Notes: generated from the sequence alone by a model not told the origin. Counted from the stretch's first letter, positions 3,019-61,896 are shown. The stretch is DNA of 64,000 nt from an uncultured Acidobacteriota bacterium (GCA_963700145.1 OY969474.1:3200001-3264000), one strand, 5' to 3'. Made by a program: numbers and translations.

Positions 3019-3047
3019 TTGACGCTTCGTGGACTCGGTCGTAGAGT
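3019..3047 (+). promoter_or_regulatory. Sigma70-type promoter
   Basis: TTGACG (3019-3024), 17 bp spacer, TAGAGT (3042-3047). Confidence 0.55.
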
Positions 3048-3092
3048 TTGCGATCAGTGCAGAATCACCAACGATCAGAGCGCTTCCCTGCG

Positions 3093-3479
3093 GTGCCGCC
3101 GCTCGCCCCCTCCGGCCCCGAGAAGAAGCTCCTCAAGGCGCTCGGCCGGCGCCTCGCGCACGTCCGCGGCGAGCGGGGGTTCTCGCAGAAGGCGCTCGCC
3201 CGCGAGCTCGGCATCGCCGAGGAGCTGATCAGCAAGTACGAGCGCGGCCGTCACGCCCCGAGGATCGGCACCCTCCTCCGGCTCCGCACCCTCCTCTCCG
3301 TCAGCCTCGACTACCTCCTCGCCGGCGCGTCCCTGAACGGCATCACCGATACCCGCCTCCTCCAGTGGGCGCGGGCGGCCAACCAGCTCTCCCCCGGCCA
3401 CCGGGACCACGTCGCCTTGCAGCTCGAGAGCATGGTGCGGGCCGCCCAAGCGCTGGAGGAGCGCATGGAGGAGGACTGA
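3093..3479 (+). CDS. XRE family transcriptional regulator
   Basis: LGRRLAHVRGERGFSQKALARELGIAEELISKYERGRHAP is a classic HTH_3; GTG 3093 chosen because it lies downstream of the promoter. Confidence 0.85.
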   Translation: MPPLAPSGPEKKLLKALGRRLAHVRGERGFSQKALARELGIAEELISKYERGRHAPRIGTLLRLRTLLSVSLDYLLAGASLNGITDTRLLQWARAANQLSPGHRDHVALQLESMVRAAQALEERMEED

Positions 3480-3482
3480 GCA

Positions 3483-3800
3483 ATGCGGCAGCCGAAGGCC
3501 CTGAGCGCGCGGACGTTGCGGAAGTACTTGGTCGCCTTGCCGGACTGGCAGGCCGTCGGCGGCAATCGTGAGCTCGTCTGCCGCCTCCGGCCGCCCGACC
3601 TGCCCTCCGCCACCCTGGCCGCCGCCACCGCCCTGCTCCTGGCCAAGGTTTGCGGCGGGCACGCAGAGGTCGAAAGCTGCGGCGTCGAGCTCGTCGTGCG
3701 CTTCACGACCCCCGAGGCCGGCGGCGTCACCCGCAACGACCTGCGGCTCGCCGCGCTGTTCTCAAAAAACCAGGGCAGCGTGCGGATCTGGAAGGACTGA
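3483..3800 (+). CDS. Divergent pterin-4a-carbinolamine dehydratase (PCD/DCoH)-fold protein
   Basis: LVALPDWQ...LVVRFTTPEAGGVTRNDLRLA resembles PCD; the catalytic HHP motif is not intact. Confidence 0.55.
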   Translation: MRQPKALSARTLRKYLVALPDWQAVGGNRELVCRLRPPDLPSATLAAATALLLAKVCGGHAEVESCGVELVVRFTTPEAGGVTRNDLRLAALFSKNQGSVRIWKD

Positions 3801-3856: not shown

Positions 3857-4072
3857 ATGGCCAAGCCCAGGAAACAGTCCCCCACCCCCGTCACCGAGCA
3901 CCTGAAGGCCGAGCGCATCCAGGTGCTCCTCGCCGGCCTGCCGGAATGGCGCGTCAGCGGCGTCCAGATCGCCGCCGGCGTCGTCACCCTCACCCTCACC
4001 ACCGCCAAGACCGCCCGCGGCCTGACCCCGGAGGAGCTGGAGCTCGCGGCGGAGCTGGAGAAGGTGGCGTAG
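3857..4072 (+). CDS. Short PCD-like protein (internally reduced)
   Basis: AGGAG RBS; LKAERIQVLLAGLPEW...VTLTLTT..RGLTPEELELAAELE matches the PCD N- and C-terminal segments. Confidence 0.5.
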   Translation: MAKPRKQSPTPVTEHLKAERIQVLLAGLPEWRVSGVQIAAGVVTLTLTTAKTARGLTPEELELAAELEKVA

Positions 4073-4111
4073 GGAGGATTCCGGTGCGGAAAGCGCTCCG
4101 AGGCGGTCGGC

Positions 4112-4321
4112 GAGATTCATCTTCCCGGGCCCAAGATCTATCTCGACGTGCCGGAGATCTATTTCCCGGCCCGCGAGATCTATCTCGGCGCCCCGGAGAT
4201 GAATCTTCCAGCCGCCGAGATCTATCTCGGAGCGCCCGAAATGAATCTCCTATAGCTCGAGATCTATCTCCGGGCCGCCGAGATCTATCTCCCGGTCCTC
4301 GAGATCTATCTCCGGCGACCA
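4112..4321. repeat. Tandem array of 10 x 21 bp: 12-bp near-palindromic core GAGATCTATCTC + 9-bp variable spacer
   Basis: Cores start at 4112, 4133, 4154, 4175, 4196, 4217, 4238, 4259, 4280 and 4301 (exact 21-bp period); all spacers differ. Confidence 0.95.
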
Positions 4322-4347
4322 AAAACCCTCAATCGAAGGAGCCGATC

Positions 4348-4731
4348 ATGCCAACGAACCTCAGCTCTACCGCCGATAAGTTCAAGACCTGGAACACCTT
4401 AGTCGAAGGGATGAAGCCTCGCCAAGAGGAGCTCGCCCACCTCAAGGAGGACCACGCGGAGCTCGGCGGCATCGTCCAGGAGATCGAAGCGCTCGTCACC
4501 CAGACTGACCAGCACGAGGCCCGCTTCCGGGAAGCCACCCAGAAGCGGCTCGACGCCGAGATCCGCGGCGCCGAGCTGTACGGCCGCCTCGTCGCCGCCC
4601 TCCGGGGCAAGTACGGCAAGCGCGCCCTCTTGCTCCACGAGTTCGGCATCCAACCCAACGCCCTGCCGGGCCCGCCGAAGAAGGATGAGGTCCCGGCCCC
4701 TGCTCCGGAGCCGACCTCCGGCGGAGCCTGA
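4348..4731 (+). CDS. Hypothetical alpha-helical/coiled-coil protein
   Basis: AAGGAG RBS at 4336; 127 aa; ends YGKRALLLHEFGIQP plus a Pro-rich tail. Confidence 0.8.
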   Translation: MPTNLSSTADKFKTWNTLVEGMKPRQEELAHLKEDHAELGGIVQEIEALVTQTDQHEARFREATQKRLDAEIRGAELYGRLVAALRGKYGKRALLLHEFGIQPNALPGPPKKDEVPAPAPEPTSGGA

Positions 4732-4747
4732 TCGCGGAGCCACAACG

Positions 4748-4780
4748 GCCGCCGGCGGAGATCTGACCTCCGCCGGCGGC
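4748..4780. terminator. 13-bp perfect hairpin (terminator or RNA-stability element)
   Basis: GCCGCCGGCGGAG-ATCTGAC-CTCCGCCGGCGGC just after the stop codon; no U-tract. Confidence 0.5.
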
Positions 4781-4827: not shown

Positions 4828-5568
4828 ATGAACCGCACCAACTCCGCCTTCCGCCTCCACCGCATTCTCCTCGCCCTGCGCGGCGCGGCCCGCGACGGCC
4901 GCCCCATCCGCGACATCTTGGGAGAAGTCTTCGAGCTCGACCCCGCCGACGACCTCGCCCTCCGCCGCCGGCTCCTCGCCGTCGACGACCTCTTCGCCCA
5001 GTCCGAGGCCGCGATCCGGTCGATCCCCGGCCTCGACCCGCCGCCCTACCTCCGCTACTTCCCCGCGGCGCGCAAGGGCCTCCTCGCGGCGCGCCTCGAC
5101 CAGGACTCCCGCCGCTACGCCCCGTTCCAGGAAGGGCTCAGCGACATCGTGCTCCAGTCCGTCGAGTTCTGCGGCGTGCGCATCGCCGAGGAGCTCCCCG
5201 AGTGGATGATCCCCACCGACGACCTGGCCGAGCTCGAGGCCCGCCTCAACGCCCTGTTCGCCTACACCGCCCGCGCCGAGCTCGACCCCGCGCTCCGCGC
5301 CGTCGCCCTCGACATCCTCCAGGCCGTCCGCACCGCCGTCGCCGACTACCGCATCCACGGCGCCCGCGGCCTGCAGGAAGCCGTCGAGAGCGCCGTCGGC
5401 AAGCTCACCGTCCACTACCTCCGCGCCCAAAAGCACGGCACCCCGCTCAACCTCGACTACCTCGAACGCCTCTTCGACCTCATCATCAAGGCCGAGGCCC
5501 TGCTCGCCAAGGCCCACGTCTACCTCCCGGCCCTGACCGAGTACCTCCCCAAGCTCCTCGGAGCCTGA
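4828..5568 (+). CDS. Hypothetical protein
   Basis: GAGG RBS, 246 aa, strong GC3 bias; no motif recognised. Confidence 0.75.
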   Translation: MNRTNSAFRLHRILLALRGAARDGRPIRDILGEVFELDPADDLALRRRLLAVDDLFAQSEAAIRSIPGLDPPPYLRYFPAARKGLLAARLDQDSRRYAPFQEGLSDIVLQSVEFCGVRIAEELPEWMIPTDDLAELEARLNALFAYTARAELDPALRAVALDILQAVRTAVADYRIHGARGLQEAVESAVGKLTVHYLRAQKHGTPLNLDYLERLFDLIIKAEALLAKAHVYLPALTEYLPKLLGA

Positions 5569-5572
5569 CGCG

Positions 5573-6156
5573 ATGGCCGACCTGCGCTGGCTCCGTGAGC
5601 ACCGCACCCTGATCGGCGTCCTCCACACCACCGAAGGCGACACCGTCGAAGCCGCCTGGCGCACGCTAGGGCAGCAGAATGCGGCGCCGCACTTCATCGC
5701 CGGCGAGCACACGATCGTCCAGTGCCGCCCCCTCAACGTCGAGGCCTCCACCCTCCGCCCCCGGCAAGAACAACACCGCCAACGTCCAAGCCCAGGTTCA
5801 GATCGTGGCGCGGAGCAAGCAGACGCTGTGGCTGCCGAAGGCGGCGACGCTCGATCCAACGGTCGCGATCCTGGCCTTCTGCGCGAAAGGCGCTCGGGAT
5901 TCCTCTGAGAGTCCCAAACGGCTGGCCCGACGACTGCTCGGGCATGCCACTGCCGTGGGCCGCGAACAACCAGCGCCGGAGACAGGCCGTCAAGGACCTG
6001 TGGCCCAAGGAGAAGGGCTGGTGGATGTGCCTGGAGGTGCCCTACCAGGGGCCGATGTGGCATTGGGACTGCGGGACGCTGCGGAGGAGCAGAATGCTTG
6101 CGATGGCGAGCCTGGACCAGATCGCCTTCGAGCGGCGGATAGAATCGTCTGAATAG
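5573..6156 (+). pseudogene. Frameshifted Amidase_2-like (N-acetylmuramoyl-L-alanine amidase) gene
   Basis: VLHTTEG...APHF in one frame, a middle segment in a second frame and EVP...HWDCG in a third; apparent +1 shifts in short homopolymers near 5760 and 5887. Confidence 0.55.
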
Positions 6157-6184: not shown

Positions 6185-9100
6185 TTGGAGTGCTACCGGA
6201 TGCAGTATTCGCTGTTTGATGGAAGCGGGGAGGGCTTGCTCTTCGGGCACGTCGTGCTCAGGCGTTATCTCGATGATCATCGAGTGACTGCCATACCAGG
6301 TCTAGACGCGACCGGAGCGATCATCCGTGACTGGATCAAGGCGGTCCGAGGAACGTCGGTCAGCAAGGAAACCAGCCTCGAACAGAAGTTTGGGCACGAC
6401 ATCCTCGGGGGGGCGCTGGGGTACCGCCTCTGGCCGCCGAGCCCAGGCGCAACCGCCACGGCTTGGCCAAAACCGCCCTCTTCGGAAACAGAGATTTCTG
6501 GAGAGCCGGACTTTGCCCTCGGCGCTTTTGACTCAGATCAGCGTGCATTCGCCGCGATCCTTGAATTGAAGTCTCCCGGTACCGACCTTGATGCACCGCA
6601 ATCACGCTCTGACCACCGCACTCCTGTGGAGCAGGCCTTTCACTACGCGCACCAGCTTCTTGGTGTCCAATGGGTCCTAGTTTCCGACATGATTCAGATA
6701 CGACTTTATTCCGTCGAATCCGCGCGCGAGTTCGAGCGGTTCGCTCTCGACTTCGATGGTCAGCTATCGCAAAGCACCACGATCGACAAGCTCCGGCGCC
6801 TCGTCTTATTGCTTCATCATGATTATCTGATTAGCGGTGGTAACGACTCTCCGGTGGCACGCTTACACCGCAAGTCGGCATCACGGCAGCTGCAGATCAG
6901 GCAGGGCTTCTACAGGGTCTATTTCGAGATCCGGCGCGATCTTTTCCATAGCATTCGGGAAGCAGTGTCTCAGGGCGGAGTCGAAGTAACTCGCAATGAG
7001 CTGCTCGAGGCCACACAGCGCCTTCTCGATCGACTTATGTTCATCTACTACTGCGAAGATCACCCCCAGAAGCTACTCCCTGATGGGCTGATTGAACGTA
7101 TTACTGCGGCTGCACGCCAACTTCCTGGCCGGAGCGATAGGAGGGTTTTCGACCAACTAAAAGAACTGTTCCATGAGATTGATAGCGGCAGTCCTTACGC
7201 GAGCGGTGCCCAGGTACCAGGCTACAACGGTGAACTCTTTAAGAGACATCCGGTCATAGATTCTATCTCTCTCCCTGACGCGCTGCACGATCGCGTCTAT
7301 GACGCCGTAGACCCCGATGGGAGGGTTCGGCAGGTGCGGGGAGCATGGGGCCTGCACGTTTACGACTTCTGGTCGGAGCTGAACGAACACCTTCTCGGCC
7401 ATATTTTTCAGGAGTCACTGTCGGATCTGGTGAGCCTGGCTGCCGGCCATGACGTCTCACTTGCGGACAAGCTGCATGAGCGGAAGCGGAAAGGAATCTA
7501 CTACACCGATCGGCTTCTTTCCGACTTTGCGTCTTCGAGCGCAATCAAGGCACTTTTGGGAGAGTTCCCCACTATTGCACCAGAGGCTAGTTCTCTGGAG
7601 CTGGTCGACCACCTCGAAGGTCGACTCCAACAAATCGCGACCCTCCGAATCATCGATTTCGCTTGTGGTTCTGGCGCATTTCTGGTGTCTGCCTATCACG
7701 AACTGCTAAATGAGACCTGGCGCAACCGCGATCTGTTGGAGGTATTGCGAGCGCAGTCCAATAGGGGTCAACTCCCTTTGCAGCCCGCAGATATCGGATT
7801 GACTCAGGCGCGCGTGCTGCGGGAGTGCCTATTTGGAGTCGATCTTCTTCCACAGGCCGTCGAAATCGCGAAACTCGCCCTCTGGTTACGCTCGGCGCGG
7901 AAGGGCGAGAAGGTTGCCGACCTCGGCTCTAATCTGATCGCGGCCGACAGCCTCGATGTTGATACCCTCTCTAGACTCATCGGCGAGAATCGGGGCAGCT
8001 TTGATCTGGTCATTGGTAATCCCCCGTGGGGAGGAGAGGTCGATTCCAGCTCTCACAGCCGTATAGCCTCATGGCTCGGCATAGACACAGATTACGATTG
8101 GGACTCCTGGGAACTATTCGTCTTGGTAGGCATGCGCGCTCTGCGCGAGGGCGGCCGGCTGGCGTTACTTGTGCCGGACAGCTTTCTTTACCCAGAGAAG
8201 CAGAGGCTGCGCCAAATCCTCCTTGAGTCGGCAACTGTCGAAAAGGTCTACAGCCTTGGGCCCGATTGGTTTGGAAGCTCGGTGCGAATGTCCACGGTCT
8301 TCCTACAAGTACGGAACGGCAAACAGATGGCCCATTCGATCCGAGGCCTTCTGCTTGCAGGCCCTCTTCGTCTCAAGGCCATCAAGGGTGAGGTACCCCT
8401 CCAGCAAATCGAGGCCCGCCTAAGCCGAGACTTGCCTTACGAGCGCAGTCTCAGTCCAGGGTACCCCATCGAAGTATTCCGGGGTGGCCGCGATGACAAA
8501 CTCCTTGCCCAAATGGAAGACGGGGGGATTCCATTGCGGGAGCTATGCGACCACTTTCGTGGCGAGGAGATGAGTAAATTCGGCCTCGTGTGGGTTTGCC
8601 CTGGGTGCCTGTCACCGAACACCCCCGGCGAAAAGAGCAAGGGCGGTGGATTTGACTCAAAGACCTGTTCCTTCTGCGACTTGTCGCTCTCGCCTGACAC
8701 CGTTCAAGCTCTTCGCCTTGTTAGAGAGTCGCGAGAAGGCCCAAGCTACGATCCATTCATAGATGGCGACGACATAACGCATCGATATCAAAGGGTCGAG
8801 AATTCTAAGTGGCTTTGGCTTGGGCTAGAAGGCTGGAAGTACAAAAAGGCGGCCATATATGCGGCACCCAAGATACTGATCCGTCAAGCAGGTATCGGCG
8901 TACTTGCAACATACGACGAGAGCGGTGCGCGGTGCCCGCAGTCAGTCTATGTATATCGCCTCAAGGAGCGTTGGGCCAAGGTTGGCTATCGCCATGAATT
9001 TGTGCTTGGTGCACTCCTGTCGCGAACCATGGCCTATTACATCTTCAAGCGATTTGGAGAGGTTGACCCCGCAAAGGCACATGCGAAGCTCACGCACGAA

Positions 9101-9379
9101 CGACTCAGGGACCTCCCGATTCCGAAGGTGGACCACAGTGAGAAGTGGGAACGAGCGGCTCACGCTAAGGTGATCGACAATGTGGGGAAGCTGCTGGACG
9201 GCAGCGCACGCCTGGGAGGTCCGGAGGACCGCGAAGTGGAGAGCGACTTGAGGAAGCTGTGGCGTGTTTCGCCAGAAGATGGCGCATACCTCCACAGGGA
9301 ATTGGCAGGTCTACCCGATAGCCGCATTCTCTCCGGTTTATTCCCTGACGGGCGACCAGGAGCGCCGGCTGGCAGTTAG
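6185..9379 (+). CDS. Type IIG (Eco57I-like) restriction endonuclease/N6-adenine methyltransferase
   Basis: PDFALG...ILELK (PD-ExK), GIYYT, IIDFACGSGAFL (motif I), GNPPW (motif IV), TaqI-C-like PKILIRQ; lower GC than flanks. Confidence 0.9.
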   Translation: MECYRMQYSLFDGSGEGLLFGHVVLRRYLDDHRVTAIPGLDATGAIIRDWIKAVRGTSVSKETSLEQKFGHDILGGALGYRLWPPSPGATATAWPKPPSSETEISGEPDFALGAFDSDQRAFAAILELKSPGTDLDAPQSRSDHRTPVEQAFHYAHQLLGVQWVLVSDMIQIRLYSVESAREFERFALDFDGQLSQSTTIDKLRRLVLLLHHDYLISGGNDSPVARLHRKSASRQLQIRQGFYRVYFEIRRDLFHSIREAVSQGGVEVTRNELLEATQRLLDRLMFIYYCEDHPQKLLPDGLIERITAAARQLPGRSDRRVFDQLKELFHEIDSGSPYASGAQVPGYNGELFKRHPVIDSISLPDALHDRVYDAVDPDGRVRQVRGAWGLHVYDFWSELNEHLLGHIFQESLSDLVSLAAGHDVSLADKLHERKRKGIYYTDRLLSDFASSSAIKALLGEFPTIAPEASSLELVDHLEGRLQQIATLRIIDFACGSGAFLVSAYHELLNETWRNRDLLEVLRAQSNRGQLPLQPADIGLTQARVLRECLFGVDLLPQAVEIAKLALWLRSARKGEKVADLGSNLIAADSLDVDTLSRLIGENRGSFDLVIGNPPWGGEVDSSSHSRIASWLGIDTDYDWDSWELFVLVGMRALREGGRLALLVPDSFLYPEKQRLRQILLESATVEKVYSLGPDWFGSSVRMSTVFLQVRNGKQMAHSIRGLLLAGPLRLKAIKGEVPLQQIEARLSRDLPYERSLSPGYPIEVFRGGRDDKLLAQMEDGGIPLRELCDHFRGEEMSKFGLVWVCPGCLSPNTPGEKSKGGGFDSKTCSFCDLSLSPDTVQALRLVRESREGPSYDPFIDGDDITHRYQRVENSKWLWLGLEGWKYKKAAIYAAPKILIRQAGIGVLATYDESGARCPQSVYVYRLKERWAKVGYRHEFVLGALLSRTMAYYIFKRFGEVDPAKAHAKLTHERLRDLPIPKVDHSEKWERAAHAKVIDNVGKLLDGSARLGGPEDREVESDLRKLWRVSPEDGAYLHRELAGLPDSRILSGLFPDGRPGAPAGS

Positions 9380-9504
9380 CTCCTAGCCGCGACCGGCACC
9401 GGTTTGCGGCCGAAGGTCTCGAAGGGTTCGGCGAGATGCCCTGACGCTGTACGAGACCGTCAGTATTAATTGACACAGCTTAGGAGTGCACCTAATCTAG
9501 GTCC

Positions 9505-10404
9505 GTGAGCGATATCCGCGACGTGTTCATCTGCCACGCCTCCGCTGATAAGGAGGAGGTCGTTTATCCTCTCGTGAAGCTACTCGAGGCGGGGGGTGTC
9601 TCGTGCTGGTTGGATGAGGCAGAGATTGCCTGGGGAGATAGCGTCACGCAGAAGGTCAACGACGGCCTGCGAACCTCACGACTCGTTATAGTCGTCTTGA
9701 GCCCAAACTTTGCGCGACACTGGCCACAGCGCGAACTCTACTCAGCCCTAGAATTGGAAGCCTCGTCAGGCGCTGTGAGGGTTCTGCCGCTCTTGACGGG
9801 ACCTGCCCAACACCGATCGGAAGTCATAGACCGTTATCCTCTCCTACGCGACAAACTATATTTGCTTTGGCCCGGGGGTCAGGAGAGGATAGTACCGGAG
9901 ATACGGAGGCGATTGGGAGCAGATCGAGATCCAGGCCAGCCAGCTCCACCTCCGGTGCCGAAGCGATTCGACATCCCGATTCCACAGGTGAGAACGGAGC
10001 CGAGCCAGCTGGATCGAGACCGATTCGCGCAGGAGGGGTTCGAGACGGTGAAGGCCTACTTCGCAGACGCCCTCCAAGAGCTCCGCGCCGCGAACCCAGC
10101 GGTACAAACAGATTTCTTGGAGGTGCATGCGCGGAAGTTTGTGGCGAAAGCATATGCGGGAGGTGATTTAAAGGCGCAGTGCAAGATTTGGTTGGGCGGG
10201 CCGTTCAATGACGTTCAGATTTCTTACAGCGCAGACGCCAGAGATGTTGATCGTGATAATGCATACAATGACTGGCTTTCTCTGAAAGCAGGTAGCTTAG
10301 CCTGGGAACCTAGTATGCCGCCGTACGGCAGTGAGCGCGGGCCTTTCGATCATGAGGGCGCTGCTGCCTACTTGTGGGAACGGTTCATCGAAGGACTGCG
10401 ATAA
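9505..10404 (+). CDS. TIR domain protein
   Basis: DVFICHASADKE...CWLDEAEIAWGDS...IVVLSPNF..WPQREL (TIR_2 with the conserved Glu). Confidence 0.9.
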   Translation: MSDIRDVFICHASADKEEVVYPLVKLLEAGGVSCWLDEAEIAWGDSVTQKVNDGLRTSRLVIVVLSPNFARHWPQRELYSALELEASSGAVRVLPLLTGPAQHRSEVIDRYPLLRDKLYLLWPGGQERIVPEIRRRLGADRDPGQPAPPPVPKRFDIPIPQVRTEPSQLDRDRFAQEGFETVKAYFADALQELRAANPAVQTDFLEVHARKFVAKAYAGGDLKAQCKIWLGGPFNDVQISYSADARDVDRDNAYNDWLSLKAGSLAWEPSMPPYGSERGPFDHEGAAAYLWERFIEGLR

Positions 10405-46068: not shown

Positions 46069-47340
46069 ATGAGCGACCTCCGTTCCGCCGCCATCCAGGT
46101 AGAGGGGCTGACCAAGCTCTTCCGCCGCGCCGCCCCCGGCGAGCAGCTGCGCACGCTCAAGAGCGCGCTCCTCGAAGGCAGCCTGACCGCGCGCCTCAAG
46201 CCCGAGGAGGCGATCGCGGCGCTCGAGGACGTGAGCTTCGAGGTCGGTCGCGGCGAGGCCTTCGGCGTCGTCGGCGGCAACGGCTCGGGGAAGAGCACGC
46301 TGCTGAAGCTCGTCGCCGGCATCCTTCGCCCGACCGCCGGGCGCGTCGTGGTGGACGGCCGCGTCGCCGCGCTCATCGAGCTCGGCGCCGGCTTCCACCC
46401 CGAGATCTCGGGGCGCGAGAACGTCTACATCAACGGCGCCATCCTGGGGCTCTCGCGGCGCGAGATCGACCGCCGCTACGACGCGATCGTCGAGTTCTCC
46501 GGCCTCGCCGACTTCATGGAGGAGCCGGTCAAGAACTACTCTTCCGGCATGTACGTGCGGCTGGGGTTCGCGGTGGCGGTGCACACCGACCCGGACGTGC
46601 TGCTGGTGGACGAAGTGCTGGCGGTCGGCGACGAGGCCTTCGCCCACCGCTGCCTGCGGCGGATCGAGGAGCACCTGGCGGCGGGCAGGACGCTGCTCTT
46701 CGTCAGCCACACGCTCGACCTGGTCGAGCAGGTCTGCGACCGCACGCTCTGGCTCGACGCCGGCCGCCCGCGCCTCCTCGGCGAGCCGCGGCGCGTGGTG
46801 GACGCCTACCGCCAGGCGGTGGCCGAAGAGGAAGGCCGCGAGCACCAGGCCGCGAAGGAGCAACAGGAGGGCGACGCCGCGGCGGCGGCGGCGCTGCGCT
46901 GGGGATCGGGGGAGGCGGAGGTCGCGGGGCTGCGGCTCCTGGCCGGCGCGGCGGGCGAAGAGCGCTACCACCTGGTCTCGGGCGAGCCCGCGGTCTTCGA
47001 GCTCACGGTGCGCGCCGCCCGCCCGCTCGCCGACTTCGTCTTCGGCATCGCCGTCGCCACGCCGCGCGGCGTCGAGGTCTGGGGCACCAACACCGACCTC
47101 GCCGGCTTCCGCCCGGCGCAGCTCGAGGGCGAGGCGGTCGTGCGCGTCGTCTGCCCGAGCCTGCGCCTCGCCGCCGGCGACTACGAGGTGGACGTCGCCG
47201 TCCACGCCAAGGAGGGCGCCCCCTACGACTACCGCCGCCGCGCCCTCACCTTCACCGTCACCGCCCCGGAGCGCGGCGTCGGCGTCTACCTGCCGGAGCA
47301 CCGCTGGGAGTTCGCGGGCGGAGTCAGGTGGGAGACTTAG
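46069..47340 (+). CDS. wzt: Polysaccharide ABC exporter ATPase with Wzt_C domain
   Basis: GGNGSGKST, YSSGMYVRLGFA, DEVLAVGD. Confidence 0.95.
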   Translation: MSDLRSAAIQVEGLTKLFRRAAPGEQLRTLKSALLEGSLTARLKPEEAIAALEDVSFEVGRGEAFGVVGGNGSGKSTLLKLVAGILRPTAGRVVVDGRVAALIELGAGFHPEISGRENVYINGAILGLSRREIDRRYDAIVEFSGLADFMEEPVKNYSSGMYVRLGFAVAVHTDPDVLLVDEVLAVGDEAFAHRCLRRIEEHLAAGRTLLFVSHTLDLVEQVCDRTLWLDAGRPRLLGEPRRVVDAYRQAVAEEEGREHQAAKEQQEGDAAAAAALRWGSGEAEVAGLRLLAGAAGEERYHLVSGEPAVFELTVRAARPLADFVFGIAVATPRGVEVWGTNTDLAGFRPAQLEGEAVVRVVCPSLRLAAGDYEVDVAVHAKEGAPYDYRRRALTFTVTAPERGVGVYLPEHRWEFAGGVRWET

Positions 47341-47343
47341 GAA

Positions 47344-50300
47344 ATGCATGTACTGGAGGACCACGACCAGCCCATCGAGAAGCCTCAAGAACAGCCGCGG
47401 CGCCGCCTCAAGAACCTCGCTTCCCAGTAGGACAATCTTGCGCAAGTACCGCCGCGCCGAAGTCCTGGCATACGCGTTTTCGTCTCGTCCACCTTCGTCG
47501 ATATGGACGAGGAGCGAAGCGAGCTCGCATATCGGGTCTTCCCGTTCCTAAAGAGCAGGTGTGAGGAACGTGGTATTCCTTGGTCAGAGGTGGACCTTCG
47601 GTGGGGAATCACAGATGAGCAGAAAGCCGAAGGCAAGACGCTCGAATTGTGCTTCGCCCAAATCGATCGCTGCCGCCCCTTTTTGATCGGGCTTCTAGGA
47701 GATCGTTATGGCTCGATACCACAGGAGATTCCAGCAGACCTCCTGGCGCGAGAGCGGTGGCTTACCGAGTATCAAGACCGCTCCGTTACAGAGCTTGAGA
47801 TTCTCCATGCTGCTCTAAATACCCCTACACAGGCTACATATGCTTTTTTTTATTTCCGGCAGTCCCGCACACTATCCGTTCTTGACTTGAACCAGAAGAA
47901 GCTTACGGCCCTCAAGCAGAGGATCCGCCAGAGCGGTCTCAAGCTGCACGACAACTATCGCACTGCTCATGAGCTTGCGGAGATGATCATTGCTGACTTC
48001 TCCGCGGTCATCGATTCCTTAGCGCCCAAAGCAGCGCATACAGATCCACTGGCGCGAGCTGCCGCCGAGCAAGAAGCATTCGCTCAGTCCAGGACCGACG
48101 TTTACGTCGGCCGTGACTCGGACTTTGCGCGCCTGCACCAGCATGTGCTCGCAGATGGACCTCCCCTCGTAGTAATCGGGGCAGCGGGGTGCGGAAAGAC
48201 TGCGTTGCTTGCAACCTGGGTGCTTCGCCAGCAGAGAGAAGAGAAAGTTTGCTTTCACTTCATCACTCGCGGATCGAGCGTGAGAGAAATGCTGCGTAGG
48301 CTTCTGAGCGAGCTCAGGTTGGCCTTCAAACTGCCGCCCGAACTAAGAAAGGGGCTTGGGCTGCGACAAGAGTTTGAGGAGTGCCTGGGATCGCTGAGGG
48401 GCAAGGGAAGATTAATTCTGTTGTTGGACGGACTGGATCAACTCGAGGAGCGTGATGGCGCTCATGATCTAGCTTGGCTGCCCCTTGATATCCCGAGCGA
48501 AATCCGCCTGGTCATCTCCACGTCGGGAGGCCGCACATTTCAAAAGCTGGTGGATCGCGGGTGGCCAATATTCGAGGTGGCTCCGTTCACGATCGCTGAG
48601 CGCCAAAGCGTAATCGAGGCAGTTCTAGGAGCCTATGGAAAATCCCTTCCGGTGGAACTCGGCACACGTATCGCTCGCTCGCAAAGCACGGCCCTGGCTT
48701 TATACCTTCGGACTCTGCTAGACGAACTCCGATTCCATGGAGATCCATCTACGCTCAGTGAGCTCGTGGACCAGTACCTCGCAGCTACAAGGCTTGATGA
48801 TCTATTGGTTCGCGTTCTCAGGCGGTACGAGCGCGACTATGAACGTGACCGCCCCAGCCTGGTACGAGATACAATGTCCGCGCTATGGGCCGCTCGGCAA
48901 GGACTGGCCGAGGCCGAGCTGCTTGAGCTGCTCGGCACCGACGGCGAGCGGCTACCGCGTTCGTTGTGGTCCCCAATCTACATTGCCTCCGAAAGAGGGT
49001 TTCTCCATCACGCCGGCCGCCTTGCCCTTCAAGGATATTGGCGCCGTGCGATCCAGCGACATTTCCTGCCTACGGAAGTTGAGCAGCGGCGGGCTCATCG
49101 ACTCTTAGCGGCCTATTTCTCGGCGCAGCCGACCCATGCTAGAACGCTCGCGGAGCTCCCCTGGCAACTTGCAGCTGCGGAAGCTTGGCAGGAACTCTAC
49201 CACCTCCTGCGAAGGCCTTCCTTTTTTCAGGCACTCTGGATTCACAACCAGTTTGAGGCAAGAGGCTTTTGGGCACAATTGGAAGCGCGTTCTTCCTATC
49301 GGCTGCAGGAGGCCTACCGATTTGTTTGCATGCAACGAGGGCACATCGATCCGCACTTCGCGACGAACGTGGCCTCGTTGCTTGCCTTCGGTGGGCACGC
49401 GCAAGAAGCCCTCACGATTCGGGAGTGGGTCGTTCGTCATTACCAAGCCGCCGGGAAGCGAGGCGAGCTCGCTGACGCTCTCAACAACTTAGGGCTGAGT
49501 TATTTAGGAACCGGAAATCTGGACCTTGCACATGAGGTGTTCAAGGCTAGCGAAACGATCTGCCGCGAGCTGAACGACGGGGCTCGCCTGTGCCTGGTTT
49601 TAGGTAATCGCGCGGCCACGTTAATCAGGGAGGATGACCATGAGAGGAAGCTGGGGATAACTGAACTATTGGTCAGCCGGCAGCGAAAGAGTCGAAGGCT
49701 CGATGAAGCGCTTGTTCTTCTGAGAGAGCAGGAAGAGCTCGCGCGCGAACTTCAAGACGCTCGAGCTCTGGGAATGTCACTCCTCAATCAAGGGACGGTG
49801 CGTTTCAAGTGTGACGACGCCGGAGGTATCGAACCCCTGAGGCAAGCGGAGGCTCTATTCTTAGAGATTGGCGATCTTGGAGACTTGGCGACCTGCTTGC
49901 TCAATCAGGCGAGCATGCTGATCCTCAAGCGTAAGAGTCAAGCTATAGGCCTATCCCAACTTGAGAGATCAGAGCAAATCTATCGTGAGTTGGGAGATCG
50001 TGCAGGATTAGCCACTGTCGAAGTGGTCCGGAACGCCGCGCGAGCAAAGATCCCGAATGATGGGATCCTTGACCCGCTGACCGAGTTCGTTGAGTTCTCG
50101 GAGGAAGAGCTCCGGCTGCGCCAGTTAGGTGACGACAGAAAGGTGATCCGAGCTCAACTCGGTCAAGCGAAAATTCGCGGAGCACTTCGAGACTCGGTCT
50201 CGCGCCAACGCGGATTAGAACTGTACCAGGAAGTGGCACGAGCTTGTAGTCAACTCGACGATACCGAAGGCCTCCGTGAGGCCCTCATAGCGATTGGTTC

Positions 50301-50502
50301 ACTTCTCCTAGTTACAGTCACGCCTCTGCGAATTGCGTTGCCCATTCTCGCCGAGGGGCGAAAGTTGGCGAGGAAGCAGCATCAGTTTTTCCTCTGGTTT
50401 GCTTTGCAGGGGTTCCGGTTCTTCATAGTTCTCCTCGCACCGTTCCCCTCACTGGTGGCTCGCTTGATCAACTTCATTGGATCGTTCTTATCAAAGCTAT
50501 AG
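47344..50502 (+). CDS. DUF4062 + P-loop NTPase (NACHT/STAND-like) + TPR protein; in-frame TAG at 47428
   Basis: IRVFVSSTFVDMDEER...DLRWG...GDRYG (DUF4062), GAAGCGKT, LLLDGLDQL, TPRs; lower GC; ORF track starts at 47503. Confidence 0.85.
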
Positions 50503-50571
50503 GTGTCATTCCTCCCAGTCACCGGGCGAGTGAATCGAGCGCAGCATTAAGGCGAGGCGGGGGGGCGCGTC

Positions 50572-50673
50572 ACTGCCGCCGTGCCCTCACCTTCACCGTC
50601 ACCGCCGCCGAACGGCGTCGGCGTCTACCTGCCGGAGCACCGGTGGTAGTTCGAGGGCGGGGTGGCGTGGGAG
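50572..50673 (+). repeat. Degenerate duplicate of the wzt 3' end (47228-47334)
   Basis: Identical blocks GCCCTCACCTTCACCGTCACCGCC (24 bp) and CGGCGTCGGCGTCTACCTGCCGGAGCACCG (30 bp). Confidence 0.9.
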
Positions 50674-50699
50674 GACGTCCGTTCAGAAGAACAAGAGAC

Positions 50700-51113
50700 C
50701 TAGGGCAATAGCTCGAAGGCTTCCAGCCGGCGCCCCACGCGGACGCGATAGGTCGAGAAATCGTCGCGGTCCAGACTGAAGATCCTGCGGGTTTGGAGCT
50801 GCTCGGCCGCGACGACGAGGCTGGCGTCAGCGAGGTCCATCGGATGGTCGGCGTACTCCTCCATCAGCTCGAACGCGCGACGCAGCGCGTCCTCGTCGAG
50901 GAACCAGACCGCCAGGCCGTCGCGACGGACGAACTCCCGCAGCGCGGTCGAGCCACGGCTGGCGGGAGAAAGCAGATGGAAGGCTTCGGTCAGAACGGGG
51001 ACCGTGGTGACAAGCGGCTGGCGCAGCTCCTGGACGACGGCCTTGCAGCGGCTGTGGTTCCGGTCGCGAGGATCGAAGAGGGCGACGAGCGGACCTGTGT
51101 CCGCCAGGATCAC
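50700..51113 (-). CDS. vapC: VapC PIN toxin
   Basis: ILADTGPLVAL...VLTEA...MDLADASLV...FSLD. Confidence 0.92.
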   Translation of the reverse strand: MILADTGPLVALFDPRDRNHSRCKAVVQELRQPLVTTVPVLTEAFHLLSPASRGSTALREFVRRDGLAVWFLDEDALRRAFELMEEYADHPMDLADASLVVAAEQLQTRRIFSLDRDDFSTYRVRVGRRLEAFELLP

Positions 51114-56986: not shown

Positions 56987-57315
56987 GCCGGGATGATCTC
57001 TACCTGCAGCACGTCTTAGATGCCATCGCGAAGATCGAGCGGTATGTAGAGGTCGGCCACGATGAATTCATGGCCGCTTCCCATTGGCAGGACGCGGTAG
57101 TCCGCCAGCTCGAGATCATCGGCGAAGCGATCAAACGCCTTCCATCCGCGCTGACACAGCAGAGACCTGAGATCCCTTGGCGTCGCATCGCCGGCATGCG
57201 AGACGTCCTAATCCACGATTACATGGGCGTGGACCTCGAAGCCGTCTGGCAGGTCACGCAGCACGATCTACCCAAGCTGCGCGACGCTATCGAGGAACTC
57301 CAGGGCAGGAGATAG
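56983..57315 (+). CDS. HEPN (DUF86) toxin
   Basis: LEIIGEA...IPWRRIAGMRDVLIHDY (RX4H). Confidence 0.92.
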   Translation: MSRDDLYLQHVLDAIAKIERYVEVGHDEFMAASHWQDAVVRQLEIIGEAIKRLPSALTQQRPEIPWRRIAGMRDVLIHDYMGVDLEAVWQVTQHDLPKLRDAIEELQGRR

Positions 57316-57421
57316 CGTTCTTGCTCGAGCTTCCCCTTCGCGCCAACGGGGTGGCCCACGCGCGTGAAGACGTCGCTTTCGATAGTCCGCTCTCCGCCAG
57401 CAAGAAAAGTCGCCGAGGTGA

Positions 57422-59296
57422 TTAACCGAGATCCTTCGTCGGTATAAGTCGGTCTACCTCAGAAAACTCAACCCTAACGTACTGCTCTACTCTCTTTGGC
57501 ACTTCGTTGGCAGCCACCAACACTTGGATCTCCTCGCCGAGTTCAGCGGATAGATTGATCAGCGCAGTCCAGATATCTTCGATCCGGGCCGCGTCGTATC
57601 CCACTGTCCCGATGTTCTTGGCGATTCCGTCGATCATGATTAGTCCTGGAAGGGGTAAGCCAAGTTCAAGCGCTGCGCGATGGTGGGCGAGAAGGTGAGC
57701 TATGTTGACCAGCACACGAACACCCGCGCTGAGCTGAGCGAATTTCTGTCCGTTCACTATTGGCTCGTAGCTGTTGCGGTCAATTGCGGCGCGCACTGCG
57801 CTGCCGAAGCTTGGAATTTCAAGTGCCTCAACGTATCGAGCAAACCAGCTCTCTAGGTGCTCGATCCTGCTCACAGTCACAGCCTCAAGCTGCTCGGCTC
57901 GCTCCAAAGCTGCTTCGAGTTCTGCCCTTTGCTGCATGAGCTCCGAAATTCGCGAGAGCACGCTGTCAAGTCGCTGGAACACGCCAACGTAGTCTTCCAG
58001 GCGCCGTATGCGCTCGCCGAGCACTGCCTGATCACGCGCAAGCCTCTCGATAAGTTCCGCCTGATCTGATATAAAGTGAGCCACCTCGTGATCCAAGGCG
58101 GATCCGAGCTTTTTCCGTTCCGACTCAAGCGCCTCAACCGTCTGTTCAAGCTCTCGACCACGTTGTTCGTGCGCGTCGATGAGCTCCTCCGTCTCCGCAA
58201 TCTGTGCGTTCAGGCGATCTTGTTCGCGAACGAGTTCCTTGCGTGTCAGTGCGGGCGGCTCCGGCTGGAGACAAAGGTAGCAGTGACCCTCCTCTGCTCG
58301 ACCCCCGACGAGCTTGGACCCGCAACGCGGACAGACCACAAACTCGAAGTCGAAGAAGCGCTCGCCGGCAACAATGGCTTTGGTAAGGCGTATCGAGTGT
58401 GCCTGTAAGTCGTTCGCAAGCTCGCCCAGCTGGACGGCGCTGCGACGCTCGTGTTGGAGTTCTGCTGCCGCGTCGCCCATTCGCTGTTCCAGAGCTGCGA
58501 TCTCCGTCCGCAACTGGAGCGCCTCTGGTGTTGTCTGCTCCGGAGCGACGAGCTGTGCTCGCTCGTATGCGAGTGCAGCCTCTCGCTCACGCGCTTCGCC
58601 AAGCTGGCGTTGGATCGCGGCGCGATTTGCGAGAGCAGTTCCCTCAAGGAACCTCTCGAACGCCGCCTGTCCCCCCTCGAGCTGGCTTAGCTCGGATTGT
58701 ACGGCCCGAAGCTGATCCTGAAGGCGAGCGACTTCGAGATCGTAGCCTCCATACAGAATTCGGAAGACGTAGCGCCGTTTGATGTCACGAAACGGCTGCG
58801 ACGAGCCAAGGACATCGACATCGATCTCGTCTTGACGCAGCCGGCAGTAGCGGAGGTAATCATTGATGCTTACAGGAATGAAGGCCGACTCCGCCGGCCG
58901 CGTCGGAGCTTGTGGCACCCGGAGGACAGGAAGGTTGAGCTGCTCGAGTAGCCAAACGCCATAGGTGACACGTGCGCCGGCATCAAGCCGCATTGCCGGA
59001 AGCCGCTCGGCGACTTGGTCACCAGCGATTTGCACGCGCGCCGTGTCGCTCTGAACCAGGGGGCGGATCACTGAGTATGCGCGGTGATCGATCGTTAACT
59101 CACCTGCGAGTTCGCTGACCGAGCGATCCACTTCTGGGCTGATGCCGCGATAACTCCCGCCGAGGAGTACTTCAAACAGCTTCATCAACGACGTCTTCCC
59201 CGTCGAGATCGGCCCGAGAATCACGTTCAGACCTGTCTGAAAGCGAATCGCACGTGAGGTCCCGACGAGAGCGAGCGAATCTACTCGGAGGATCAT
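57422..59296 (-). CDS. SMC-like ABC ATPase of a Lamassu/ABC-3C system (LmuB-like)
   Basis: GPISTGKT Walker A, long coiled coil with CPRC...CYLC zinc hook, LSAG signature, LIMID Walker B. Confidence 0.85.
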   Translation of the reverse strand: MILRVDSLALVGTSRAIRFQTGLNVILGPISTGKTSLMKLFEVLLGGSYRGISPEVDRSVSELAGELTIDHRAYSVIRPLVQSDTARVQIAGDQVAERLPAMRLDAGARVTYGVWLLEQLNLPVLRVPQAPTRPAESAFIPVSINDYLRYCRLRQDEIDVDVLGSSQPFRDIKRRYVFRILYGGYDLEVARLQDQLRAVQSELSQLEGGQAAFERFLEGTALANRAAIQRQLGEAREREAALAYERAQLVAPEQTTPEALQLRTEIAALEQRMGDAAAELQHERRSAVQLGELANDLQAHSIRLTKAIVAGERFFDFEFVVCPRCGSKLVGGRAEEGHCYLCLQPEPPALTRKELVREQDRLNAQIAETEELIDAHEQRGRELEQTVEALESERKKLGSALDHEVAHFISDQAELIERLARDQAVLGERIRRLEDYVGVFQRLDSVLSRISELMQQRAELEAALERAEQLEAVTVSRIEHLESWFARYVEALEIPSFGSAVRAAIDRNSYEPIVNGQKFAQLSAGVRVLVNIAHLLAHHRAALELGLPLPGLIMIDGIAKNIGTVGYDAARIEDIWTALINLSAELGEEIQVLVAANEVPKRVEQYVRVEFSEVDRLIPTKDLG

Positions 59297-59835
59297 AGTG
59301 CCTCGCCCCAACTCGCTTGTGTTACCTCGGGAAAGTGTTGGTAGATAAAGTTCTTGAGAAACGTGCCGCCCTGCTGCGGGAAAGCGCGCTTCAGCAGGCG
59401 CGCCCGCTCGGCGGCCTGAGCCCAAGCCTCAGTCGTGGAGAGCTGCTTCGCTAGGACCCGCCCAACTTCCGTCGCGCGGAATCCAATAAAGCGGGGCTGC
59501 GGAATCGTCTCGATCAAGCCGCGGCCAAGGAGGCTTCCGAGGAGGGCGTAGTAAGCCGGATCCCATGGACCGTATCGGAATCGAACCATCCGCTGCTCGA
59601 TTGTGTTCTCACTTGTGCCCGGTTCGTGTAGATCGATATCGATCTTCCGAATACGCAGAGCTCGACGAAAGAACGAGGGGTACCTAAGAAGAAAATCTAG
59701 TTTGGCGAGCTTTGTACGACCCTGCAATGTCCCCTCACGGCCGGAGAAGGCGTTGATTAGGAGAAGTAGGCGAGCTTCGCCTTCGACAGAAGCAGCGTAG
59801 ACAGCCGGTGACATCGTCAAGCGGGTCTCAGCCAT
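59293..59835 (-). CDS. ABC-3C middle component (LmuC-like)
   Basis: TKLAKLDFLLRYP...MVRFRYGPWD; coupled between the effector and the ATPase. Confidence 0.75.
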   Translation of the reverse strand: MAETRLTMSPAVYAASVEGEARLLLLINAFSGREGTLQGRTKLAKLDFLLRYPSFFRRALRIRKIDIDLHEPGTSENTIEQRMVRFRYGPWDPAYYALLGSLLGRGLIETIPQPRFIGFRATEVGRVLAKQLSTTEAWAQAAERARLLKRAFPQQGGTFLKNFIYQHFPEVTQASWGEAL

Positions 59836-60991
59836 CTGTTCCCCATCGGAACTTGCACTCGTCCGAGTATTCGCAGATCGCCCCCATAAGCAGCAGTGGC
59901 TCCTGGCTGAGAATGCGGCGAGGGTCGTGCTCGATCGGGTGCGTCTCTAACCGCCGTTGGATCGCACGCCAAGTCGTGGGTGCCGGAGGCCTGTCACTTA
60001 CAGTTGCCGCAGTAGCCTCAGCCACCGCGAGTAACCGGAATTCAAGGTCGGCGAGCAAGTCGTCGACGTTGAGGAGACTCGAGGCACGAAACTCGCGCAT
60101 GCGGAGACTGGCTTGTGCTCGGAGTTGCTTCGCATGTTGGATGAGTGCCGCCGGCGCACCCGCGGTCTCCATTTTTTGTTCCAAAGCGGTCGCTCTCAGG
60201 CGATCGGGATCCGTAATGCGAGCAAGTAATGCGCGGTCGCTGCCCTCTAGACGCCCGAGGGTCGGCGAGAGCCGCAGGCGATCAAGGCGCTTGGCCTCTG
60301 CCCGCCGCCTTGCTTCCTCCTCCGCGTTCTCAGGTTCGAGTATTACCTTAGGCCACGCATCGGCGAGCAACTCTGCCCGCATCGCCTGCTCAATCAAGTC
60401 AATTGCCGCCTCGTAGATCGCCTTCAACTCGTTTGCCGATAGGTGCCCCGCGGCGCGACCGAGGTGGCCGAGGTTCCGGTCCTCAATGAGTTCCCGCGGA
60501 GGCTCCCCGGCGTGAACGACCACTCGCGCCAACAGAGCCGTCGCTTCTGCCTCGTTGCAGTCCAGCTTCCGCGCACAGGTCTGCGTCATCTCCTGGTTGG
60601 CTCCACTACCACTACGCGGGAAACAACGAATGTCGTCCTCCCGGTGAGGCGCTCCCTCAAGCCGAATGTCGTAGACGATCCGGCGCCCGTCGTTGAAGTC
60701 GCCGATAGCGCGATGTGTGCGCAGCAAACTCTTTAGTGCGCCACCAGCCTCCAACAAATGCCGGTATCTCCAGGGACCCCGGTCGGCGTTGCGTGTCTTG
60801 ATCTGGACAAAGCGCAGCTCGTCTCGTGATTCGACTAGGATGTCCTCGAAGTGCTCGGGCAGGACAGCGAGCACACCTTGGTTGAAGTAGCATCTCAAGC
60901 AGAAAGGGAATGCGACGTGAGCTTGATATCGGAAGCGGGTGAAAGTGCCCGCACCCGAGTCGTCGGGCGGCTGCATCTCAGAAATCGACAC
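59828..60991 (-). CDS. Cap4/DUF4297-like dsDNA nuclease effector with ABC-3C CTD (LmuA-like)
   Basis: DSG..T..RFRYQ...EHFEDI...FVQIK; C-terminal LMGAICEYSDECKFRW. Confidence 0.85.
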   Translation of the reverse strand: MSISEMQPPDDSGAGTFTRFRYQAHVAFPFCLRCYFNQGVLAVLPEHFEDILVESRDELRFVQIKTRNADRGPWRYRHLLEAGGALKSLLRTHRAIGDFNDGRRIVYDIRLEGAPHREDDIRCFPRSGSGANQEMTQTCARKLDCNEAEATALLARVVVHAGEPPRELIEDRNLGHLGRAAGHLSANELKAIYEAAIDLIEQAMRAELLADAWPKVILEPENAEEEARRRAEAKRLDRLRLSPTLGRLEGSDRALLARITDPDRLRATALEQKMETAGAPAALIQHAKQLRAQASLRMREFRASSLLNVDDLLADLEFRLLAVAEATAATVSDRPPAPTTWRAIQRRLETHPIEHDPRRILSQEPLLLMGAICEYSDECKFRWGTDG

Positions 60992-61315
60992 AGACCTGTA
61001 TCTTAGGCTAGTTACCGAGCATCCGCAGCCCGTCGGGCCGCAGCCTCTCGGGCGTCGCAGGATCCCATGCTACCTACTGCCGGCAACGGGCCGAGGCGAG
61101 GACCTCGTCAGGTCGCATCGACCGGGATGGCTCTCGCCCTAGGTGCGACAACAACCACCTGGGCGGCTGCTGGGTGAAAGCGCAGCGCGGTTTGTTCGTC
61201 TCGACCGATCAGGCCGAGAAGCCGGCCAGATTCCCGTTTGGCCAACCGTGCGGGGGCGAAAATCCGGCGCTTGCCGGCAGGTTCGGTAGGCGCTAAGGTC
61301 ACGTTGGAGACGCTG

Positions 61316-61686: not shown

Positions 61687-61896
61687 CCGCAGGCGCCGCG
61701 GGAAATGCCGCGGGCGTTGCGGGGAATCCCGCGGGCGCCGCGGTACACATTTCTCCGGCCGCGGTACACCCCGCAGCCGCCGCGGGAAACTCCGCGGGCG
61801 CTCCGGGAAATGCCGCAGGGCCTGCGGGAAATGGCGCGACGCGCAGGGGAAATGCCGCGGGCGGCGCGGGAAATCCCGCGGCGGCTGCGGACATCC
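61687..61896. repeat. Tandem array of 10 x 21 bp, consensus CCGCGGGCGNNGCGGGAAATG
   Basis: Units start at 61687, 61708, 61729, 61750, 61771, 61792, 61813, 61834, 61855 and 61876. Confidence 0.9.

Follow-up and report, generated by a model that had tools for sequence, protein, structure and literature searches.

Helically phased palindromic arrays paired with genes of a coiled-coil protein, p127, in one family of Acidobacteriota

Described systems with short phased repeats

Tandem short repeats lying just upstream of a small gene are a feature of the parC/ParR and parH/ParG loci, as set out in the cited parts of two reports (PMC5016525, PMC3130281), and with ParR-type adaptors one dimer occupies each repeat, the DNA wraps a protein superhelix and the promoter is repressed too, according to the part of PMC5016525 that deals with them. 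Here we describe an array of comparable layout in a stretch of 64,000 nucleotides from an uncultured Acidobacteriota bacterium (GCA_963700145.1 OY969474.1:3200001-3264000), called the window throughout, where ten palindromic units at positions 4112-4321 adjoin the plus-strand gene (4348-4731) of p127, a 127-amino-acid coiled-coil protein of an uncharacterised family and the constant neighbour of such arrays. Periods of two or four helical turns, an excess of palindromes, conserved palindrome arms and a constant partner gene jointly point to docking of protein on duplex DNA. We therefore tentatively read the window array as a line of docking sites for a dimeric protein, all on one face of the double helix, a reading that we regard as possible rather than probable.

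The locus resembles parC/ParR and parH/ParG in having tandem repeats just upstream of a small gene, but it differs from par loci in that the arrays are chromosomal, with 123 of them per genome and at least 16 copies of the gene. No nucleoside triphosphatase of the ParM, ParA or TubZ type and no ribbon-helix-helix ParR was found by Pfam among the 13 window proteins and the 60 proteins flanking the other 15 cassettes, a set to which the family scans mentioned below also refer. Unlike ParR, p127 is helical from residue 8 onwards, which leaves too few preceding residues for the ribbon of a ribbon-helix-helix fold, and the array units are palindromes of 20-21 bp, unlike parC of R1, which is made of 11-bp direct repeats.

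Iteron arrays, such as those of P1 incA, R6K and RK2, consist of direct repeats of about 20 bp standing in helical phase beside the gene of their binding protein, and extra arrays titrate that protein. The p127 locus likewise has phased repeats of about 20 bp adjoining the gene of a candidate partner, and extra arrays elsewhere; its cores, however, are palindromic, close paralogs have unrelated cores, and instead of an origin context there are 123 chromosomal places. No Rep initiator family was found among the scanned proteins.

REP and BIME elements are described, in the cited part of PMC3733652, as dispersed intergenic palindromes that are often clustered, are targets of insertion sequences and vary in presence and absence. 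The present arrays share the dispersed intergenic palindromes, the insertion-sequence insertions and the presence/absence variation, but they come without a RAYT, follow a strict phasing of 20, 21 or 42 bp, have many unrelated cores in one genome, keep their arms in situ and have a constant gene partner. TIGR arrays, as far as the cited part of PMC12045711 describes them, have two alternating repeats of 8-12 nt with 9-nt spacers, mostly in 5-15 units, and an adjacent effector gene. The window array is similar in its 9-nt linkers, its dimeric unit and its small adjacent gene, but there is no Nop domain, the linkers are drifting DNA and most arrays stand alone. Its single palindromic core type has a weak 42-bp super-period (self-identity 0.69 at lag 42 vs 0.63 at lag 21), and the repeat ends UG...CCA given in that part of PMC12045711 were not seen in the window cores. 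From CRISPR, with repeats of about 23-50 bp and spacers of similar size added at one end, the locus differs by its unit of only 21 bp, which an earlier note on this DNA had rightly called too short, by the same units and order in a sister species, and by the absence of cas families from the scanned proteins. Finally, H-NS-type proteins are, in the cited part of PMC5418058, coiled-coil oligomers with a flexible basic DNA-binding end that nucleate at helically phased high-affinity sites. The predicted coiled-coil dimer of p127 and the RGR-type runs in the tails of some paralogs may resemble the N-terminal coiled-coil oligomerisation domain and the C-terminal minor-groove-binding motif of H-NS-like proteins, whereas the 16 p127 paralogs per genome and the long regular arrays with palindromic cores as sites do not fit them; no H-NS, Lsr2 or MvaT domain was found in p127 by Pfam. 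Repression of its own gene is a further property of hns.

A genome-wide family of arrays and its pairing with p127

The window array, which was given no strand, is built from ten units of 21 bp, each formed by a 12-bp core, (G/A)AGAT-NN-ATCT(C/T), and a 9-bp G+C-rich linker. The cores start at 4112, 4133, 4154, 4175, 4196, 4217, 4238, 4259, 4280 and 4301, a step of exactly 21 bp; five of the ten are perfect copies of GAGATCTATCTC, each of the other five carries a single mismatch (a transition), and all ten linkers are distinct from one another. The exact periodicity, the GAGAT-NN-ATCTC core and the ten differing spacers, all reported by the earlier note, were confirmed by reading the sequence and by Tandem Repeats Finder (TRF), which gave period 21 (9.6 copies, 65-69% matches) as well as period 42 (4.6 copies, 75% matches). 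Since the TRF matches and the lag-42 self-identity exceed the 21-bp values, the hint of a 42-bp dimer in that note also holds for this array. With up to two mismatches allowed, the core pattern matches 37 times across the window, against 22.9 +/- 4.3 in shuffled sequences, and ten matches in register occur solely at 4112-4321. The array starts 40 bp past the stop of pcd2, a small upstream gene, and ends, as had been observed, 14 nt before the p127 ribosome-binding site AAGGAG (4336-4341, plus strand), which is preceded by an A/C-rich leader and followed by the ATG at 4348. A second array in the window, at 61687-61881, has 9.3 units of 21 bp (unit CCGCGGGCGCCGCGGGAAATG).

We found that such arrays recur throughout the genome, which is a single contig of 5.46 Mb with 71.5% G+C. 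When 126-bp genome segments with more than 62% self-identity were counted per lag, lag 21 gave 12720, lag 42 gave 10746 and lag 20 gave 2130, compared with 157, 120, 170 and 143 at lags 19, 22, 23 and 24. The merged census holds 123 arrays, of which 95 have period 21, 15 have period 20 and 13 have period 42; together they span 35.3 kb, about 0.65% of the genome. Of the functions that had been considered for the window array, in-phase protein-binding sites fit best with this confinement to periods of 20, 21 and 42 bp. The dimer period exceeds the 21-bp period in only 12 of 77 arrays. Cores vary between arrays: GAGAT-NN-ATCTC is found in about 17, others are GGAAGCTTCC, GCGAAGCTTCGC, GGAAAGCTTTCC, CGGAT-NN-ATCCG, CGGAAC-NN-GTTCCG, GATAC-N4-GTATC and GTAC-N4-GTAC, and some, such as TCGGACC, are non-palindromic. 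Palindrome arms of at least 5 occur in the consensus unit of 58 of the 110 arrays with period 20 or 21 (12.6% after shuffling), and arms of at least 6 in that of 36 (3.7% after shuffling).

An iterated profile search of the same genome revealed 16 p127 genes, encoding 123-141 aa, and 15 of them have an array ending -60 to 150 bp from the start, compared with 48 of 3525 gene calls (binomial P = 1.6e-27), these calls being crude and GC3-based and array classes depending on k-mer thresholds. At the sixteenth gene the 21-bp signal is weaker (lag-21 identity 0.42 vs 0.27-0.35 at other lags), and among the paralog arrays two have period 20 and one has period 42. The window carries the feature by which the array-plus-p127 module is grouped here, a tandem array of about 20, 21 or 42 bp period at most 150 bp from a p127-family gene. 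All 16 paralogs have a GGAG or AGGA match at most 18 nt from the chosen start, the choice of start having favoured such matches.

Of 201 sampled genomes of the host's class, 5 have members of the p127 family, with 7 to at least 21 matches per positive genome; these are all five sampled members of one family, and none of the 196 class genomes outside that family has a match. Among 24 homolog loci from three other genera, 12 have an array upstream (period 20-22 or 40-43), 4 have one downstream, all in genome G006, and 8 have no array above an identity of 0.56. Arrays downstream of the p127 homolog in G006 (genus g3) lie at L028 1078-1324 and L048 2067-2354; the periods there are 20/40, with core CGAATTCG, and 42. 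Three metagenome loci from a single-protein search all have an upstream array, one of them decayed and seen by eye only; at locus L084 an array (460-676) of the type found at 61687-61881 in the window lies directly upstream of a 79%-identical p127 homolog. A strict GAGAT pattern search gave matches in 4 of 41 genomes of relatives, and its miss in G002 is due to a core variant, a related cassette there having a 12-unit GGGAT..ATCTC array. Examination of homolog flanks was therefore positive, with 15 of the 16 paralogs at threshold and one weak, 16 of the 24 loci elsewhere and 3 of 3 in metagenomes, which supports the pairing of array and protein that the earlier note had taken to be undescribed. 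The literature searched, at the level of titles and abstracts, holds no description of such arrays in Acidobacteriota, and array plus p127 looks like an undescribed module.

In 1.84 billion representative proteins the p127 family has 1315 members at E <= 0.001, nearly all of 105-165 aa. The AlphaFold2 (AF2) model of the window protein (pLDDT 84) consists of a helix at residues 8-25, a 60-residue helix at 30-89, a short helix at 94-99 and a disordered tail. Modelled as a homodimer, p127 gives an ipSAE of 0.66 (runs 0.65, 0.66 and 0.66), the best of three controls giving 0.00; agreement between runs covers 94% of contacts or more, the partner has a pLDDT of 86 or higher, and in calibration the ipSAE mark was reached by 20 of 30 solved one-chain pairs and by 1 of 23 solved single chains. 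The contacts 74-42, 78-39 and 49-67 indicate an antiparallel arrangement, and the model thus supports p127 being an antiparallel coiled-coil homodimer. Past the conserved proline come basic tails, which in several paralogs include a PRGRKR, PRGGRR or PRRRR run. Family and fold searches with p127, by Pfam, PHROGs, Foldseek PDB, wide VIA-align, a PDB sequence profile and the ESM Atlas, returned only hypothetical Acidobacteriota clusters or generic coiled coils, and ten further family members, longer ones included, have no Pfam family above cut-off, one of them showing two sub-threshold matches.

Comparison of orthologous arrays, five in all, revealed, in three pairs, different rates of change for arms and linkers. 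The ortholog in the sister species G001 has the same ten units in the same order as the window array, with 1 of 100 arm positions changed vs 10 of 105 other positions. Against G004, the array of cassette 3889 keeps unit number and order and has changes at 4/120 arm and 8/90 other positions, and array 3709400, one of the orphans (arrays with no p127-like segment within 700 bp), has 3/131 and 15/97. Summing these three well-aligned pairs gives 8/351 for arms vs 33/292 for other positions, and pooling all rows with coverage above 0.8 gives 35/507 vs 98/693 (Fisher P = 8e-5); the arms thus look selected in these alignments. Given the fixed unit order, the conserved arms and the drifting linkers, the 'spacers' are vertically inherited, weakly constrained linkers and not acquired guides: sister-species orthologs keep units and order while linkers only accumulate substitutions.

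The cassette around the array

In the window the array belongs to a cassette with the order XRE helix-turn-helix (HTH), PCD-like, truncated PCD-like, array, p127, p246, p111, all of its genes lying on the plus strand. A sigma-70-like promoter match, TTGACG-17-TAGAGT at 3019-3047 (plus strand; one site vs 0.1 expected in shuffles, a consensus match only), is a possible start of a single transcript comprising the XRE and PCD-like genes, the array and p127. The XRE-family HTH protein (3048-3479; 143 aa as called; HTH_19 1.4e-12, HTH_3 2.2e-12) may truly start later than the called 3048. At least 9 of the 16 cassettes have an XRE HTH gene upstream of p127 and no more than 2 kb away from it; for this count of 9, 7 cassettes and the window were taken by Pfam, and L016 and L019 as homologues of the L007 HTH. 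Next come pcd1 (3483-3800), a PCD/DCoH-like protein of 105 aa (Pterin_4a 3.8e-09, 37 bits, over cut-off), and pcd2 (3857-4072), of 71 aa, which lies directly upstream of the array and has a PCD-like domain with an internal deletion, matching the pcd1 profile at positions 1-20 and 57-89 only. In cassettes 2032, 3107, 3387 and 3889, pcd2 likewise stands just before the array, and remnants of it are found at the orphan arrays 4166670 and 3807684. Contigs from four soil DNA runs, which are fragmentary and derive from paralogs and relatives, include none that spans the array, and several stop just after the pcd2 stop (loose ends 4068-4071).

After p127 lies the hairpin that had been noticed earlier, read here as a 12-bp G+C hairpin at 4749-4779 on the plus strand (CCGCCGGCGGAG / CTCCGCCGGCGG); no T-run follows it, and terminator prediction lists none there. 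The next gene encodes p246 (4828-5568), an all-helical protein of no family with five cassette copies, for which we found no Pfam match and, with its AF2 model (pLDDT 81), no Foldseek PDB match at E <= 0.001. It is followed by p111 (5573-5908), a small cassette open reading frame (ORF) whose paralogs stand after p246 in other copies, several of them interrupted; its tblastn matches at 3389711, 3104069 and 3891630 come as split segments. The order pcd2-array-p127-p246 is common to at least four further copies.

Synonymous divergence (dS) between the window cassette and its paralogs is 0.66-0.85 for p127, whereas in these pairs p246 has 0.26-0.28 and pcd2 has 0.11-0.39; the ratio of nonsynonymous to synonymous divergence (dN/dS) of p127 between copies is 0.26-0.63. 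Cassette copies are 80-92% DNA-identical in their flanks, while the array is unalignable in 8 of 10 pairs. Because p127 dS lies above that of its neighbours and most array pairs do not align, array and p127 behave as one old, long-diverged module within recently homogenised flanks. Intermediate cores exist: GAGAT and GGAAT arms occur together in the 3889 array, which can be aligned with the GGAAC array of cassette 3107.

Two orphans, 3138474 and 4237684, have short N-terminal p127 remnants of about 20-30 codons, recognised by eye, and the GAGAT arrays at 3138415-3138474 and 4237684 share their unit order with the window array; the truncated p127 starts at 3138415-3138474 and from 4237684 onward are decayed duplicates of the window cassette. 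Decay of cassettes as the origin of orphans in general was rejected, only 15 of the 123 arrays having a p127-like segment within 700 bp. Clustering all arrays by their flanks gave one large mixed component.

The cassette is adjoined by a low-G+C stretch at 6185-10404 (0.56-0.61 vs 0.70), which encodes a 1064-aa MmeI/Eco57I-type restriction-methylase fusion and a 299-aa TIR-domain protein and looks like a defence islet. Two more low-G+C stretches (0.56-0.62), at 47000-51000 and 57000-61000, may be horizontally acquired islands, and one of them has a 999-aa ORF at 47503-50502. Type II toxin-antitoxin pairs are present in p127 neighbourhoods of the same genome (L012 3472-4097, L014 1181-1765): VapB/PIN immediately follows one p127 paralog, and MazE/MazF lies about 1 kb before another.

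What the arrays may do

If the arrays are docking tracks on duplex DNA, a dimeric protein would bind each palindrome, with contacts between neighbouring dimers on one side of the helix. At the window locus the nucleoprotein filament formed in this way would set p127 expression, and at about 100 orphan arrays it would serve to mark the chromosome or to shape it. The likeliest partner would be p127 itself: its dimer is predicted to be a rod of about 9 nm with two basic, partly RGR-type tails, one leaving each end, the array period being 7.1 nm. It would read phasing and groove shape and not the exact letters of the core. Since no protein was found to track the cores, p127, if it binds, must read phasing and shape; otherwise class-specific readers would have to be encoded elsewhere.

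Several observations weigh against docking sites read by p127 or by another cassette protein. The tail of the window p127 is merely weakly basic (PPKKDE), and no DNA-binding fold was found in the protein: it has no Pfam match and no Foldseek PDB match, its best VIA-align Z is 6.5, to generic helical hairpins, and a PDB sequence profile search gave coiled-coil noise only. The HTH proteins of cassettes 3387 and 3889 differ, by eye, at one of about 113 residues, and despite these near-identical HTHs the former cassette has the core GATACC-NN-GGTATC and the latter GAGAT/GGAAT-NN. In cassettes 2032, 3107 and 3387 the p127 genes are 79-87% DNA-identical yet have three different cores, and a metagenome p127 that is 79% identical to the window protein has a CCGCGG..GAAATG array. 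Altogether no cassette protein among HTH, pcd2 and p127 co-varies with the core, and no sequence-specific reader was found. In addition, 108 of the 123 arrays are orphans, and 25 of the 91 intergenic orphans lie, by the crude gene calls, between convergent genes, which makes them a poor fit to a promoter operator. Orphan array 3709400 is missing at the same site in G002, and arrays can therefore be dispensable. Finally, excess conservation of arms was not seen in orphan 5427457 vs G004 (arms 14/93, others 10/72, coverage 0.79), nor in orphan 4387899 (arms 15/78 vs 29/201, and 12/78 vs 36/200), a comparison in which the arm definition failed, having found merely a 3-bp palindrome.

A correspondence of one p127 to each core class was also considered and rejected, the linked arrays falling in 12-14 k-mer classes and random draws in 11-13 under four class definitions (P = 0.32-0.46). 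When 40 p127 proteins were placed in a tree, the two period-20 paralogs came out as sisters (100/99) and some of the AAGCTT-like cores fell together; we did not take this as evidence for core matching, linked inheritance explaining the clustering equally well.

The orphans, the copying of arrays and the empty site would suit a selfish or neutral dispersed minisatellite, similar to BIME/REP or MIRU elements and without host function, p127 merely belonging to a multicopy cassette that holds or favours an array; we consider this somewhat unlikely, and still the strongest of the rival explanations. The prevalence of orphans and the empty locus in G002 are in its favour, as is the finding that orphans 3054202 and 3576876 share unit order, linkers and similar right flanks, indicating that whole arrays were copied. 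Every intergenic class contains orphans, in roughly the proportions of the background (convergent 25, divergent 19 and tandem 47, vs 378, 474 and 1108). Array ends fade into degenerate units, and insertion sequences are found inside arrays: a gene for a 420-aa IS256-family (Mutator-type) transposase splits a GAGAT-type array at 84939-86459, with inverted ends GTCCCGATTCTTGTGGA and the element itself between 84939 and 86397, and a second insertion sequence, with ends TACTGTCCT and situated between 2566539 and 2570350, splits an array at 2566393/2570350. However, a period restricted to about two or four turns of the helix is not predicted by neutral slippage, linkers drift whereas arms stay conserved in situ, the pairing of array and p127 holds across four genera, and no Y1/RAYT transposase is present (PF01797, 0 matches, the control being positive in 6 of 14 named genomes).

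As to the sites themselves, the GAGAT-type arrays at 3709340-3709400, 3576855 and 4237405 have a common left-junction motif, CAAGCCGTG, and the orthologous site of G002, which is without an array, retains GTCAAGCCG; the shared motif may be a target or junction motif.

An unlikely variant of binding along the arrays would be a family-restricted chromatin system, in which paralogous p127 proteins act as antiparallel coiled-coil rulers with two basic tails about one period apart and polymerise along more than 100 arrays for H-NS-like silencing or structure, each p127 gene being under its own array.

The arrays might instead act at the RNA level, the transcribed 12-mers folding into long imperfect helices that control processing, stability or translation of the p127 message. 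A single promoter-like site precedes the genes from XRE to p127, which share a strand and are separated by short gaps, and the array of paralog 2131738 reaches the start codon, which means that transcription includes at least the end of that array. Of the 16 p127-linked arrays, 13 have a C-rich sense strand (mean GC skew -0.089), a weak sign of transcription-linked asymmetry, and RNA of the array folds well (z = -5.1); the antisense strand, however, folds equally well (z = -5.4). The earlier note had seen in the window array one compensatory pair, two G-U pairs and one mismatched junction and had suggested stems that present each spacer as a loop. These features are present as described, but they are no more frequent than chance: complementary double changes in 66 arrays have a frequency of 0.425 within the core and 0.376 across the linker, vs 0.444 between random arms of the same array. 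Because double changes thus match those of random arms, the compensatory pair is not evidence for stems, and there is no excess of covariation within the core or across the linker to support them. Moreover, an RNA would have no reason to keep a period of 20, 21 or 42, many arrays lie between convergent genes, and Rfam has no match in the array, its one sub-threshold small-RNA match (RF01781, 23.8 bits vs a gathering score of 40) lying inside the p127 gene. An RNA function is possible for the p127-linked arrays; as an account of the window array we judge it distinctly unlikely.

Very improbable is a guide array like TIGR or CRISPR, with 12-nt repeats and 9-nt spacers processed into guides for an unrecognised effector. 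The architecture resembles TIGR arrays as the cited part of PMC12045711 presents them, and the 42-bp super-period of the window array would agree with it. As the earlier note had observed, no Nop-domain or Tas gene is visible: Pfam Nop (PF01798) has 0 matches in the whole genome, the control being positive in 4 of 14 named genomes, the four archaea, and fold searches with the p127 and p246 models listed no Nop or Tas chain in the PDB, which by itself is not decisive. The spacers pass down vertically, their order fixed, and change as neutral DNA would; of 123 arrays per genome most are without a constant neighbour, and only 12 of 77 have a dominant dimer period, so that the guide or spacer array envisaged at first is not supported.

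Hardly credible, lastly, is translation of the units as an N-terminal RDLSxxx heptad extension of p127 (ORF 3946-4731), which the earlier note had named as a refutation and which fails, the array being non-coding DNA. Although the p127 frame is open through the window array (261-aa ORF) and, in 9 of 16 paralogs, over at least 100 codons before the start, such frames are frequent in DNA of 71.5% G+C, 7 of the 16 paralogs are interrupted by an in-frame stop 4-50 codons ahead of the start, all 16 have a ribosome-binding site and start at the same alignment column, the cores are palindromic and differ between near-identical cassettes, and the changes of the 3889 array vs G004, in one long frame read by eye, are mostly amino-acid-changing.

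In summary, what is new here is the genome-wide census, the linkage of arrays to 15 of 16 p127 genes, the dating of the mosaic cassettes, the rates of arms vs linkers and the negative tests for a class-specific reader. Even if the arrays are selfish DNA, it would be unusual for a repeat family to keep to two helical turns and to conserve its palindromic arms, and a copying mechanism without the known RAYT enzymes would be needed. If they are docking tracks for a dimeric protein on duplex DNA, one bacterial family would have built a large set of phase-locked protein landing pads, 123 in this genome, together with a private protein family that lacks any known domain and counts 1315 cluster representatives in public data; this would be a new mode of organising or silencing bacterial DNA, and a model for cooperative filaments that read geometry over sequence.

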